Source: Dictyostelium discoideum (Eukaryota). From it: a DNA stretch of 64,000 nt. Positions 21,458 through 28,203 of the stretch are shown piece after piece. The stretch covers positions 736,001 through 800,000 of the forward strand of contig CM000152.2 in assembly GCA_000004695.1 (NCBI GenBank), in the 5' to 3' direction. The position numbers and the translations under genes were made by a program. Each line of letters begins with the position of its first letter. The first letter of the stretch is position 1. The notes under the pieces were generated by a model, which was given only the letters and a program-made list of their open reading frames with translations, ran no database searches and had not been told where the DNA came from.

Positions 21458-22543
21458 AGTGTTCTATTGCAAAATCTGAGGTGCGAAGTTTGCTTTTTTT
21501 TTTTTTTTTTTTTTTTTTTTTTTAAAAATTTTTTTTTTTTTTCAATTTTAAAAAAAAATAAAAAAATAAAATAAAATAAAAAATAATTGATAGGGTGTGG
21601 AGTTTTGTGTGAAGTTTTATTCTAATAAAAAGACTTTATTGCAATTTAAAAGGTCAAAAAAATTTTATTAGAACTTTTGAATTCGCTAAAAGTTGTTTAT
21701 TTATGTATGTATGTATGTGGTTTGGTACAGTGTGTGTGTGTGTGTGTGTGTTGGTTGTGGTGGTATATTTAGTTGAAAAAATAATAAAAGTTAAAAATAA
21801 TAATCTATTTTTTGTGTATGAGGACCTTATGTGAACCTTTTTTTTTTTTTTTATTTTTTTTATTTTTTTTATTTTTTTTTAGTTTGATTTTTTTTTTTTT
21901 TGTTATTTCTTTTTTTTTTTATTATTTTATGTCTAATGATATAGTGCAAACCAAGTTAAAAAAATAAAAAAAAAAAAAAAAAAAAATAAAATAAATTTTT
22001 TTTTTTTTTTTTTTTCGAAATTTTGTGGAGAGCGTTAAATAAATTCAATAGTGTTGGTGCCAAAAATATAAAAAAAAAAAAAAAAAAATTTGATAATCGA
22101 GATCCCAATTCCACAAAATACGAATTGCCACTTAAACTCCCCGTCAAAAAAAGAAAAAAAAAGAAAAAAAAACAAAACAAAACCAGAACAATATGTCTAC
22201 AATGCTAAAAAAAAAAAGAAAAAAAAAAAAAAATAAATAAATAAAAAAAAAAATAATAATAATAATAATGATAAAAAAGGAAAAAAAAAATAAATAATAT
22301 TATTAAAAAAAAAAAAAAAAAAAAAAAAAAAAGTGATCCATTGGTTGTGATAAATTCGTTACAGTGCGTTATGATAAATATAAAACTTCGAGGTTGATTG
22401 TATGGTTTGATGACAAAAAAATATTAGAAAAACTTTTCGAACCACAAGAAGATAATGATTTAATAAAACAATTGGATCAATTGACTCTTATGTAACTTTA
22501 AATAATGTGTAAATAAAAAAAAGACTTATTTTTTTAAGTCAAT

Positions 22544-22743
22544 ACCACTTTTTTTATTTTTTAATTTTTTAATTTTTTAATTTTTTAATTTTTTTAAGTC
22601 AATACCACTTTTTTTATTTTTTTATTTTTTAATTTTTTAATTTTTAAAATTCATAAATCATAGATATAAATAAATTTAAACATGAATAATACAGGTAATC
22701 GTCTCGATTTAAACATGAATAATACAGGTAATCGTCTCGACAT
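22544..22743 (+). repeat. Two adjacent tandem duplications. A ~62-bp unit is repeated twice at 22544-22660. A 33-bp unit is repeated twice at 22678-22743 and spans the start codon of the 180-aa ORF.
   Basis: Direct reading: TTAAGTCAATACCACTTTTTTTATTTTTTAATTTTTTAATTTT.. occurs twice in tandem, and AAACATGAATAATACAGGTAATCGTCTCGA.. occurs twice in tandem. Confidence 0.8.
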
Positions 22744-23224
22744 GGATGGTTCAAGGACTCCAGTAACACGTGGTAAAGCAAAAAAGAATAGCATTAATGC
22801 TTACCTGATAATAATAATCATGCTTTCGTTATTATCAGCTTTCTTAGTCCAACATTCTATGAATTTAAACAAACAACTTCAACAACAAACAACCAAGACA
22901 AATGACTTTGCATACGAGCTTTTAACACTATTGATCTCGAAACACACCAACGACATATCAGGTAACGATAACAATGTTCATAGTGGCAGTGGGGATATTA
23001 ATATACAAAATATGATAGATGAAATTGCAAATGAAAACACGAGAAAGATTTTACTGGATGCAATAAACAGTGGTAATTTATCTGGGTTAAAAGCAGCAAT
23101 TTCAAAAGCCAATGGTCAAGTTAAACACACTGTCGATAAGGCTGTTCATCAAGTTGGAAATGTTGCTAATAAAGCAGGAAAACAATTAGAAAAAGAAGTA
23201 AAGAGATTTTTCAAGAGATTTTAA
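22682..23224 (+). CDS. Predicted small single-pass membrane protein, 180 aa, with atypical codon usage.
   Basis: The ATG lies within a 33-bp in-frame tandem duplication (MNNTGNRLDLN / MNNTGNRLDMD). A hydrophobic helix reads YLIIIIMLSLLSAFLV. Many G/C-ending codons (CTC, GAC, AGG, AGC, CTG, TCG, GTC, ACC, GGC, GGG) are unusual for Dictyostelium nuclear genes. AATAAA motifs lie downstream. Confidence 0.4.
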   Translation: MNNTGNRLDLNMNNTGNRLDMDGSRTPVTRGKAKKNSINAYLIIIIMLSLLSAFLVQHSMNLNKQLQQQTTKTNDFAYELLTLLISKHTNDISGNDNNVHSGSGDINIQNMIDEIANENTRKILLDAINSGNLSGLKAAISKANGQVKHTVDKAVHQVGNVANKAGKQLEKEVKRFFKRF

Positions 23225-23839
23225 AAAGTAATAACAATACAAATAAAAATAATATTAAAACATAAACAGTCTTTGTATTTTGTAACATTAAACTCTTATA
23301 TCAATTGTTGTAGGGAATTTTATTATTTAATTTCACTACAGTAGCGCAGTGAAAAAAAAAATCACTGACCCTAAATTTTTTTTTATTCAAAAAACAAATA
23401 AAGTTTATTATTTTTTTGTTTTTAATTATTAATTCCTATTTTAATGGTTAATTATTATTATTTTTTTTTTTTCTTTTTTTTTTTTTTTTTTTTCTTTTTT
23501 TTTTTTTTTTTTTTCTCATTTTTTTCATTTTTGTTTTTCATTTTTTTTTTATTTTCATATTTTCAATTTTAGGACAACAAATTATCAAACAAACATTAAA
23601 GAAATCTAAAACTTCAGAATATTTATCATTTGAAAATAATTTAATTTAAAAGAAATGTGAAGAGTTTATATTATTTGTTATTAATGAATTACCAAAATTA
23701 AAATACTTAATTGGGTATTAATTTCAAAAGATGAAAGAACAAAAGCAGCAAAATTAGATAGTGAAGGTTTCTTTCAAAACAATTCTAAGTGTTACTCCAG
23801 TTGTTATCAATAATAAAAAATAAATAATAATAATAATGT

Positions 23840-25520: not shown

Positions 25521-25845
25521 ACTAATAATATATTACCTATTTTAAAATTGAAAAAATGAAAATGAAAAAAAAAAAAAAAAAAAATTGAAAAAAAAAAAAT
25601 TGAAAAAAAAAAAAAAAAAAAAAAAAAAAAAAATATTACCAATAATAATTATAATAATAATAAATAAAATAATAATTAAAACAAAAAATAAAATTACAAT
25701 TTAATAAACTTTATTTGTTTTTTGAAAAAAAAAAAATTTAAGGTCAGTGATTTTTTTTTTTTCACTGCGCTACTGTAGTGAAATTAAATAATAAAATTCA
25801 CTACGCTGTAGTGAAATTTTATTGAAAATTCCCTACAACATCAAT

Positions 25846-26716
25846 GTCACAATGTAATTGCTTTGTAAATGTTTTTACACTGCAGTAGTGATGCTGCAAA
25901 AAAAAGGGTAAGACCAAGCGATTATAAATATATCCCAGAACACTCTAGAAACGATATTGCAAATATTTTAGAAAGAGCTATAGCATCAGAAGAGGAAAAT
26001 CTCGAAAAAATCGAAAAAACAAAAGAAAGACTTTCACGCGCAAGGAAGGAAATTGAAGATCTTAACGCCAGAAATGAAAGTATTCAAGAATTAATTTCAG
26101 AAAATGACAAAAATTTAAAGAATACAAAAGAAGAAATTGAACGTTTAAAAAAAGAAAAAGATGAATTAAAAAAAGCAAAGGGAGAATTCGAAGCTTCTTT
26201 AAAAGAAATTGAAGTAAAAACAGCTTTCTTGGAGGATGTTAGTCAACATATCTTCAAAGAAGCACTCCGAGATCCAGCAGTGATGTGGGGTAAATTAACT
26301 TATGGAGGTGTGATCCCAACTAGCGAAGAAAACAGACAATTTTATTTAAATCTTGTCCAACATTTCGAAAAGAAAAATTATAGAATTTCCGAACTCAGAG
26401 AAGAATTGGAGTCTTTTCCAATTAATAAATTATTGGAAAAACTCCATATTGGTGATTCCAAAACAGAAGAAACAACCGATTGCATTGTCCCAGAGTCATC
26501 TGCTATAGTGCCACCACAACCAATAACTCCAACCACACCAATTATTACCGAGTTCGAAAAAGACAATTAATAAGTAACAAAATAAACTAACCACTTAGGG
26601 TTTTAAATTTTTTTTAGAGTGGTTTAAAATATCTCTTGTATTAATATTAATATCGTAAATGTAATTGCATTGTAAATGCAGTGTAAAATTTTACACTGTG
26701 TAGTGACGCTCAAAAA
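25846..26716 (+). repeat. Direct repeats of ~55-65 bp (25846-25903 and 26650-26716) bracketing the 233-aa ORF. The second copy contains a perfect 20-bp palindrome CAGTGTAAAATTTTACACTG.
   Basis: ..AATGTAATTGC.TTGTAAATG..TTTTACACTG(C/T)(A/G)GTAGTGA(T/C)GCT.CAAAAAAAAG is present at both sites. The related CACT.CAGTAG..GTGA motif also occurs in the TIR arms. Confidence 0.7.
25869..26570 (+). CDS. Predicted 233-aa coiled-coil protein with atypical codon usage. Its N-terminal codons are encoded by the direct-repeat unit.
   Basis: The ORF runs ATG 25869 to stop 26570. The heptad-rich middle reads EENLEKIEKTKERLSRARKEIEDLNARNESIQELISENDKNLKNTKEEIERLKKEKDELKKAKGEFEASLKEIE. It uses codons that are rare for Dictyostelium (CGC, AGG, GCC, CTC). 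An AAG|GTAAGA donor-like site sits at 25898. Whether this is a host gene or part of a repeat element is unresolved. Confidence 0.4.
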   Translation: MFLHCSSDAAKKRVRPSDYKYIPEHSRNDIANILERAIASEEENLEKIEKTKERLSRARKEIEDLNARNESIQELISENDKNLKNTKEEIERLKKEKDELKKAKGEFEASLKEIEVKTAFLEDVSQHIFKEALRDPAVMWGKLTYGGVIPTSEENRQFYLNLVQHFEKKNYRISELREELESFPINKLLEKLHIGDSKTEETTDCIVPESSAIVPPQPITPTTPIITEFEKDN

Positions 26717-28203
26717 AAAAGTAAAAAAAGTTGAATTTTTTTTGATAAAATCATGAGATATTTTTGATAAAAATCAAATTGTGGAAAATTTATGCTCTAA
26801 AATATATAAAAACAAGAATGCCAAACAGTGATCCAAGTTTATGTTATAATTGTTCATCCATTTGTGAACACACTCAAACTTTCTCGAGCCGTGGTGTAGA
26901 TGTAGATCGTTGTCTTAATTTCAAAACCAATTACAACAAAAATTATTACAACAAAAAGTAATCAACATAATGCTGAATAACAACACCAACAAAAATAGAT
27001 TCAAAATCAAACAAACAAAATCAAAACCAATCATTATAAATAAAACTACTCTTATATAATACCAAAAAAAAAAAAAAAAAAAAAAAAAAAAAAAAAAAAA
27101 ATATATAAAATTAAAATTGGAAAATGATAAGTTTTTTAATTTTACATTTCGATATTTTTTATATTGTTTTTATTTTTTTTGATTTGTCAAAATGCCCAAA
27201 ATAATTAAAATCTGAATTAATATAATAATTGATTTGATTTTAGAAAAAAAAAAAAAAAAAAAAAAAAAAAAATAATAATAACAATAGAATTGATTTGTGG
27301 TAATTCAACAAATTTTACAATAAAACCAATTATTCTTTTGGACCATAAATAGCTTAATTATAATATTTATTTAAATTAATATTTATTATATATATATATA
27401 TTTCAACTTTTGATTCTGGAAATACAACTTGGGCAATAAAAGAAATTAATAAAAATATGATATCCAGAAAAACAAGAAAATAAACAAAACCAAGTATTCA
27501 GTGAAAAGGATTTTATACAATTATTTAATTCCTGTAATAATATGAAGTTGTTTCTTGTGAATCTATTTCATTTTTTTTTTTTTTTTTTAAGTATTTATTT
27601 AAGTTTTCTACAAGATAAAATGGTGTCAATGTTCTGTCTTGAATGCTTCAAAAAAATAATAAAAAAAAAATAGGTTAGTTTATTTTTTGAATTTAATAAT
27701 TTATCATTCATTTTTTGTAATTGTTTTTGAAGAACAACCAGAGAGAATATATCTTTAATAAAAAAAAAAAAACCAAAAAAATTTGAATGTGAGTTTATTT
27801 TTTACAGCGGAAGACACAACAGATAATATGGAAAAATTAAAAAAAAAATTGAAAATTAGTCAATAGATATTAAAATTTTAAGGTGTGCCCAAGCAACTGG
27901 AGCTCTACTTGCGGTTAATCTATTATTATTTTTTATTTCTCCAACTTTTTTTGATGGGGGGTCATTTTGCCTCCAAAAATATTATTATTTTACTTTTAAT
28001 AAAAAAAAAAACATTTGAGACACAAAAGATATTTTATTTTTTTATTTTTTAATTTAATTTTTTTTTTTTTCTTTTTTTTTTTTTTTTTTTTGGCATTATT
28101 TAATTAAATTAAATAGTTGAGTGATTTTTGAGTTGAATCCATTTTATTTTATAAAAAAACCAACAATATTTAACAAAGATTAAAAACCAAACTTTTTTAA
28201 TGA

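Follow-up and report, generated by a model that had tools for sequence, protein, structure and literature searches.

Small orphan reading frames and a nested DNA transposon in a Dictyostelium discoideum intergenic block absent from D. citrinum

An intergenic region of Dictyostelium discoideum AX4 chromosome 3, located between a protein kinase gene and the gene for DNA polymerase epsilon subunit B (PolE-B), contains a block of DNA (block X) that is missing from the corresponding interval of D. citrinum. Within this block we found four small open reading frames (ORF1 to ORF4) on the same strand, a direct repeat of about 90 bp in two copies (DR1 and DR2) and a DNA transposon with terminal inverted repeats (TIRs), which is inserted in DR1. 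The region was studied as part of a 64-kb stretch (the window), which was placed on the AX4 chromosome by exact protein look-ups; its ORFs were identical to DDB_G0278355, DDB_G0278359, DDB_G0278669 and an L-PSP/diphthine-ammonia ligase. With moderate confidence, we read block X as lineage-specific DNA carrying small single-copy orphan genes, which was later entered by a defective Tdd-type transposon. We see in the locus a modest example of rapid genome turnover rather than a novel type of mobile element. An earlier interpretation of the same stretch, drawn from its letters alone (the sequence-only reading), had proposed a composite or nested mobile-element region, or a recently acquired or fast-evolving gene pair. 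The nested TIR insertion and the recently acquired or fast-evolving pair fit our results, but a composite element encoding the ORFs does not. The positions of all features are collected in Table 1.

The D. citrinum locus (L002) was reached via the neighbouring kinase gene, and the interval compared was that from the kinase gene to PolE-B. The spacing between the two genes was 1.66 kb in D. citrinum versus 9.2 kb in AX4. Synteny, at 74-86% identity, reached window position 22333, resumed in direct orientation at 27057-27122 and was fully restored at 30203. In the blastn comparison, positions 1593-1655 of the D. citrinum interval corresponded to window 27057-27122 (83%), and positions 1709-1957 corresponded to window 27284-27064 in inverted orientation (72%, E = 2e-34). 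Without its transposon, block X comes to about 2.2 kb. The tblastn searches with ORF1, ORF2 and ORF3 gave no match in the D. citrinum locus. The earlier view that this is not ordinary conserved host DNA was justified, since 22334-27056 and most of 27057-30202 are absent from the D. citrinum interval. Outer terminal repeats, inverted or direct, and a target duplication were sought at the edges of block X and rejected, as only chance 8-12-mers were found. The poly(A) stretch at 27064-27101 was also considered as a retroposition tail; since an A-tract occupies the same position in D. citrinum, and the A-tracts at the block edges are present in that species too, they are not such tails. An independent AX4-like assembly (GCA_054883475.1, locus L001) was 99.7% identical to the window, and between 22.0 and 27.4 kb all differences consisted of homopolymer lengths and one substitution.

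Table 1. Features of the AX4 kinase-PolE-B intergenic region and its flanks (window positions; GC3, G+C content at third codon positions; CAI, codon adaptation index; aa, amino acids)
Feature	Position	Strand	Details
Block X, AX4 DNA without D. citrinum counterpart	22334-27056		Delimited by synteny breaks versus L002
ORF3 fragment	22337-22497	+	52-codon open frame without ATG, SIGCDKFVTVRYDKYKTSRLIVWFDDKKILEKLFEPQEDNDLIKQLDQLTLM followed by a stop; GC3 0.231, CAI 0.59; left edge of block X
60-bp tandem duplication, 5' of ORF1	22528-22645		Tandem Repeats Finder: period 60, 2.0 copies, 98% matches
Perfect 33-bp tandem duplication	22674-22740	+	Two copies, 100% identity
ORF1, 180 aa	22682-23224	+	Open frame; GC3 0.272, CAI 0.48
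DR1, left part	23286-23305	+	Last 5 bp (23301-23305), TCAAT, form the left target-site duplication
Tdd-4/5-like (Ginger2-type) non-autonomous DNA transposon, by hallmarks, 2535 bp	23306-25840		Termini, target duplication, inverted repeats
Right target-site duplication TCAAT and DR1, right part	25841-25906	+	25841-25845 and 25846-25906; carries motif CACTGCAGTAGTG and the ORF2 ATG
ORF2, 233 aa, DDB_G0278363 / Q54Y87, hypothetical protein	25869-26570	+	Exact match; GC3 0.227, CAI 0.58
DR2	26623-26720	+	14-bp near-palindrome AATGTAATTGCATT, 20-bp palindrome, motif CACTGTGTAGTG
ORF4, 47 aa, Cys-containing	26818-26961	+	MPNSDPSLCYNCSSICEHTQTFSSRGVDVDRCLNF... (MPNSDPSLCYNCSSICEHTQTFSSRGVDVDRCLNFKTNYNKNYYNKK); GC3 0.298, CAI 0.47; 3' of DR2
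Short segment common with D. citrinum intergenic DNA	27057-27284		About 27057-27122 direct, about 27150-27284 inverted
Block Y, second AX4-specific stretch, ahead of PolE-B synteny	27285-30202		Degraded ORF pieces and 260-nt hairpin
Protein kinase gene, left flank	17135-21040	-	Reconstructed: 3 exons, 1093 aa
PolE-B gene, right flank	30301-32775	-	Reconstructed: 5 exons, 682 aa

ORF1 and ORF2, both of which the sequence-only reading had recognized at their full lengths of 180 and 233 aa, carry a coding signal, since their open frames surpass those of all shuffles and their G+C content falls from the first to the third codon position, as in real coding frames. The open frame of ORF1 extends over 184 codons, compared with a maximum of 132 in 2000 composition-matched shuffles, and that of ORF2 over 233 codons, compared with a maximum of 179. 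The G+C contents at codon positions 1/2/3 were 0.41/0.31/0.27 for ORF1 and 0.45/0.32/0.23 for ORF2. An AATAAA motif is located 18 bp past the stop codon of ORF1 (at 23242) and 11 bp past that of ORF2 (at 26581). We read the two ORFs as protein-coding genes in their own right, each with a single exon and functional either now or until recently, and infer that they are expressed as genes. ORF1 consists of a short N-terminal region, a single hydrophobic helix (approximately residues 40-58) and a helical C-terminal part with 11-residue-like repeats; the hydrophobic stretch reads AYLIIIIMLSLLSAFLV, and the sequence-only reading had described the ORF as transmembrane. Its AlphaFold2 model contained a transmembrane-like helix and amphipathic helices, with a predicted local distance difference test score (pLDDT) of 64, and a single-pass membrane protein is proposed. 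The ORF2 model showed one long confident helix (residues 24-134), coiled-coil-like, and a low-confidence or disordered C-terminal tail. Both models were made without an alignment and, being single-sequence predictions, carry little evidential weight. The perfect 33-bp duplication noticed in the sequence-only reading lies at the ORF1 5' end. It takes in the 8 bp ahead of the ORF1 start and, beginning with the ATG, 8 codons plus base 1 of codon 9, and the N-terminus MNNTGNRLD-LN-MNNTGNRLD is the product of this in-frame event. The duplication described further upstream is also present, with a period of 60 bp instead of the 62 bp given before.

No relatives of either protein were found. ORF2 matched only itself, both when 5.8 billion proteins were searched with a word index and in a full phmmer search over 1.84 billion representatives, and ORF1 had no match in the protein collections searched. 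ORF1 is not recorded as a called gene of 180 aa, and the clustered collection also lacked the versions starting from its two downstream in-frame ATGs. The two sequences do not align with each other, and they were consequently rejected as paralogues; neither has a paralogue among annotated proteins or inside the window. Pfam searches with ORF1 and ORF2 returned sub-threshold coiled-coil matches only, with no gag, transposase or integrase, and PHROGs returned weak matches of the coiled-coil type. Nothing below E = 0.065 was obtained in the PDB sequence search and nothing below E = 8.6 with Foldseek against PDB, where no gag, RNase H-like or DDE fold was recognized. The suggested check for a gag-like or transposase-associated fold was thus negative within the limits of single-sequence models. 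ORF3 had no Pfam match and ORF4 no PHROG match, and no recombinase was present among the ORFs scanned in 22-27 kb. Evidence that ORF1 and ORF2 belong to a transposon was not found, and they are read as not being transposon genes.

The four frames share a compositional signature. Another 21 window ORFs served as the codon baseline (GC3 0.152 +/- 0.041, CAI 0.690 +/- 0.061). Against it, ORF1 was an outlier (z = +2.9 for GC3; CAI 0.482, z = -3.4), while ORF2 stood at the edge of the host range (z = +1.8 for GC3; CAI 0.578, z = -1.8), and one conserved window ORF had a GC3 of 0.228, similar to that of ORF2. Taken together, ORF1 to ORF4 ranged from 0.23 to 0.30 in GC3 and from 0.47 to 0.59 in CAI, in comparison to 0.065-0.228 and 0.60-0.82 for the host ORFs. 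The third frame reported previously at approximately 22344-22497 is real, as it is open from 22337 to a stop codon at 22495-22497, and ORF4, which had escaped the sequence-only reading, has the highest GC3 in block X. The pieces inside the TIR element were host-like (GC3 0.02-0.11, CAI 0.65-0.75). The raised GC3 and low CAI confirm a real but modest shift in codon usage; however, both larger ORFs are still strongly AT-biased, so that the earlier description of it as unlike that of Dictyostelium was too strong. The spacers of the window contain 10-16% G+C, and Dictyostelium intergenic DNA is much more AT-rich than the third positions of these frames. The raised GC3 in such an AT-rich setting speaks against an origin in local non-coding DNA and favours arrival in one piece. 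Together with the poor codon adaptation of all four frames and the intact coding periodicity, it suggests that block X may have come as a whole from a less AT-rich context, its composition not yet having decayed to that of the host. In being short, single-exon and poorly codon-adapted, in their predicted simple helices, and in lacking homologues, being single-copy and being absent from the syntenic locus of the sister species, these ORFs resemble the orphan genes of variable intergenic regions. They differ from them in that de novo local origin predicts very low GC3, whereas the values observed are above the host range, and in that the signature is common to four neighbouring ORFs, which points to arrival of a block and not to birth in place.

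The transposon begins with TGTTGTAGGG and ends with CCCTACAACA, whose reverse complement is again TGTTGTAGGG. Both ends read TGTTGTAGGGAATTTT, giving the pattern TGTTG...CAACA, which agrees with the TGTNR ... YNACA terminal pattern of Tdd-4/Tdd-5. The insertion is flanked by a 5-bp target-site duplication, TCAAT, at 23301-23305 and 25841-25845. The inverted repeats of about 265 bp occupy 23306-23571 and 25543-25840; the inverted alignment of 23310-23571 with 25804-25543 spans 269 bp and shows 83.6% identity, and the right end has an additional internal duplication of about 35 bp. The interior (23572-25542, + strand) consists of a chain of frameshifted S/T/N/Q-rich ORF pieces. In six-frame translation these contained no Pfam domain and no rve/integrase, and a Gypsy-integrase-like DDE transposase with an H2C2 zinc finger was not found; the interior resembles a host-type gene that was captured or has decayed, and not a transposase. 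The full-length Tdd-4 and Tdd-5 elements of the Ginger2/Tdd group, cut-and-paste DNA transposons of D. discoideum, are 3.8 kb long, encode an integrase-like transposase and have TGTNR termini, 5-bp duplications and inverted repeats of 260 bp (Tdd-4) and 297 bp (Tdd-5) (PMC2836005). The element described here is similar to them in its TGTTG...CAACA ends, its 5-bp TCAAT duplication in an AT-rich target and the length of its inverted repeats. In contrast, it is only 2.5 kb long, lacks an integrase-like DDE ORF and has an interior of frameshifted S/T/N-rich ORF with host-like codon usage. The terminal pattern, the 5-bp duplication and the repeat length, in the absence of an integrase, led us to term it a non-autonomous Tdd-4/5-like element. 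The likeness to the reference copies (Tdd-4, AAFI02000006.1:352615-356458; Tdd-5, AF298206) was judged from hallmarks; at best, the element is a non-autonomous Tdd-4/5-like derivative, and it may instead belong to another Dictyostelium DNA-transposon family (DDT or thug). Known miRNA probe sequences, considered for naming the element via thug-S, had no match in the window.

The order of insertion was established on a reconstructed empty site, which was built by deleting the transposon and one TCAAT (transposon-free junction …TATATCAATGTCAC…). The empty site (23286-23305 joined to 25846-25906) aligned with 26623-26720 with a score of 70, whereas shuffles reached 26 +/- 4 with a maximum of 43. 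The repeat is accordingly about 85-98 bp long, and the transposon landed within its first copy. The direct repeats of about 55 bp that had been noted around ORF2 are present (25851-25906 versus 26658-26721, blastn E = 5.5e-6), but their true length is greater, since copy 1 is split. DR1 starts about 60 bp past the ORF1 stop codon and DR2 at a similar distance from that of ORF2, each of them 3' of an AATAAA. DR2 contains the perfect 20-bp palindrome CAGTGTAAAATTTTACACTG at 26679-26698 and the CACTGTG heptamer at 26694, and the ORF2 start codon and initial 12 codons come from DR1, with GTAAGA following at 25908; these details had all been seen correctly in the sequence-only reading. The equivalent ATG in DR2 opens only 26 codons. 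No tRNA gene or known RNA family, as a retrotransposon target or as the identity of the repeats, was present in the window or within 20-31 kb, and this candidate identity was rejected. In a metagenome scan with the repeat core, four 21-mers matched, all in unrelated contigs whose G+C content was 36-47%, and were rejected as chance.

The following course of events would account for these observations. A block of about 2.2 kb with four small same-strand frames, which would be genuine coding frames from a less AT-rich source, would have entered the otherwise short, divergent and fast-evolving intergenic region between the kinase and PolE-B genes. The duplicated spacer of about 90 bp would have lain inside this block, its first copy giving ORF2 the start codon. 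The 2.5-kb non-autonomous Tdd-4/5-like element would then have inserted in copy 1, duplicating the 5-bp TCAAT and widening the spacing between ORF1 and ORF2 from about 110 bp to 2.6 kb. Most recent of all would be the tandem duplications of 33 and 60 bp at the ORF1 5' end, which probably arose by slippage.

In the main alternative, which we consider rather unlikely, block X might be what is left of a larger mobile or foreign element, or have been carried by one as cargo; examples would be an older transposon related to the Tdd-like element, an integrated circular DNA or a piece of an AT-rich virus or plasmid. ORF1 to ORF4 would then be the genes of that element and the repeats of about 90 bp its recombination or binding sites, resulting, for example, from single-crossover (Campbell-type) integration of the ORF2 segment. 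The absence of the block from D. citrinum is compatible with such an origin, as are its compact same-strand layout with short spacers that exceed host intergenic DNA in G+C content, the common composition that sets the frames apart from the host and the direct repeats on both sides of ORF2. In addition, the motif CACT-N(2-10)-TAGTG occurred five times in the window, always within the two inverted repeats or the two copies of the direct repeat, compared with a chance expectation of about 1.35 for random positions, and DR1 showed a marginal likeness to the left inverted repeat (3 of 500 shuffles attained the observed score). However, DR2 had no significant similarity to the inverted repeat, and the repeats folded no better than shuffles (z = -1.1 and -1.4). 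No homologue was found in any virus, plasmid, transposon or cellular proteome of the protein collections searched, and the block contains neither a recognizable transposase, integrase or gag domain or fold nor outer terminal repeats or a target duplication. The assignment of ORF1 and ORF2 to a composite mobile element, which the sequence-only reading had offered as one option, was unsupported on the same grounds: no paralogues are annotated among Dictyostelium proteins, and the repeats around ORF2 are direct. Some resemblance exists to nested transposons, miniature inverted-repeat transposable elements (MITEs) and solo-TIR relics, as the transposon lies inside a repeat that has a short palindromic motif of the transposon's subterminal region. 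These repeats differ in being direct, without inverted ends or target duplications of their own, and in their marginal TIR likeness.

The possibility that the ORFs are non-functional, either as decaying gene remnants or as fortuitous frames in intergenic DNA of fast turnover, with DDB_G0278363 over-predicted, appears unlikely. ORF3 lacks a start codon, the adjoining block Y has degraded frame-shifted ORF pieces, codon adaptation is relaxed, ORF1 is missing from the protein collections and the N-terminus of ORF2 is derived from a repeat, all of which speak for decaying or fortuitous frames; the single-sequence models, with helices only and low confidence beyond the long helix, are in line with this. 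Set against these points are the intact frames of 180 and 233 codons, which beat all 2000 composition-matched shuffles, and the position-specific coding periodicity, which is kept in the present frame. Both ORFs are also identical in the two AX4-lineage assemblies, although these are too close to weigh much.

The arrangement of block X invites comparison with integron attC arrays and Campbell-type products. Here, a conserved, palindrome-bearing repeat of about 90 bp comes at a constant short distance behind each of two small, unrelated ORFs on one strand, and direct repeats bracket ORF2 as in Campbell-type products. Unlike attC arrays, the block has only two copies of the repeat, which do not fold significantly, and no recombinase or integrase was found in it; it also lies in a eukaryotic chromosome, and the analogy is one of sequence layout only. 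Block X could also be a small endogenized fragment of an AT-rich mobile genome, for example from an amoeba virus, from a nuclear plasmid or from an element of the cassette type, which we regard as very improbable. Its promoter-poor unrelated ORFs would each be followed by a site of about 90 bp for recombination or 3'-end formation, and the CACT...TAGTG motif shared with Tdd-like ends could explain the exact landing site of the transposon. Were this the case, the locus would represent a eukaryotic cassette-like gene-capture system. A single host gene, with ORF1 and ORF2 as its exons and the transposon in its intron, is barely credible and was rejected. The ORFs lie on the same strand, about 110 bp apart before the insertion, with GTAAAG close to the ORF1 end and AG sites in DR1. 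However, when every GT..AG pair of the reconstructed empty site was enumerated, no plausible intron emerged: the only fusions that stay in frame would take out 260-716 bp of the ORF1 coding sequence, with just 69-73% A+T, and the donors near the ORF1 end never join ORF2 in frame. In addition, ORF1 closes with TAA and ORF2 has its own ATG.

Several points weigh against our preferred reading of block X as lineage-specific DNA with orphan genes. The outgroups offered no usable synteny, with the Tieghemostelium lacteum kinase at a contig end and an absence of synteny in Cavenderia fasciculata, and we therefore infer, and do not observe, that the block was gained in D. discoideum and not lost in D. 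citrinum. The term single copy applies to annotated proteins and to this window. The specificity to the AX4 lineage leans on missing homologous proteins in incomplete collections; indeed, the exact kinase and PolE-B sequences were both absent from a collection of 15 billion proteins, which indicates that it is incomplete for proteins of this lineage. ORF1 is missing from the protein collections and appears in the newer annotation, that of GCA_054883475.1, only as part of a 474-aa model (L001 6819-9146), which joins the ORF1 ATG to pieces of the transposon interior and is regarded as an artefact. The identifier DDB_G0278363 was found in no searchable paper text.

Should the lineage-specific reading be true, the locus would be a compact, datable example of an AT-rich, gene-dense amoeba genome gaining coding DNA. 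The unannotated ORF1, the repeat-after-ORF arrangement and the lack of the whole block in D. citrinum are new, while the transposon type, the occurrence of orphan genes in variable regions and the annotation of ORF2 were already known. The locus is usable as a presence/absence marker in strain comparisons, and its importance would rise sharply if the repeat of about 90 bp were multi-copy, mobile or recombinogenic.

Further observations were made in the surroundings of block X. Within the short segment shared with D. citrinum, an ancestral intergenic piece of about 135 bp (approximately 27150-27284) is inverted relative to that species, while the adjoining 27057-27122 is direct, which points to a small inversion that may have gone along with the insertions. 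In block Y, three successive open pieces in differing frames (28184-28594, + strand), with the sequences …MDEKESKNFQRHWFSQWINNQILKLVIYR, …MVEDGITIHQIPKFTLSDDSFIKLEIFEFVKNNAQSLISPDLN and INSIDEDLVAYDGNYASIIYLPSKPNKKFSFGELDFLENQYP, each followed by a stop, look like a frameshifted pseudogene. Also in block Y, a near-perfect long hairpin of about 260 nt occupies 29790-30050, with an RNA minimum free energy of -98.6 kcal/mol versus -32.4 +/- 3.9 for shuffles (z = -17). It had no Rfam match and may represent a MITE or else a hairpin-RNA locus resembling a miRNA or siRNA precursor. In D. discoideum strain ACTFIR, 15 kb from the studied locus, a segment of approximately 4.9 kb (locus L004, 16337-21236) carries two genes with BB_PF domains, where the AX4 counterpart (37740-39962) is 2.2 kb long and gene-free. 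The flanks of this segment align to AX4 at only 91-94% identity, and, together with the absence of the segment from AX4, this indicates that the neighbourhood is structurally polymorphic between strains.

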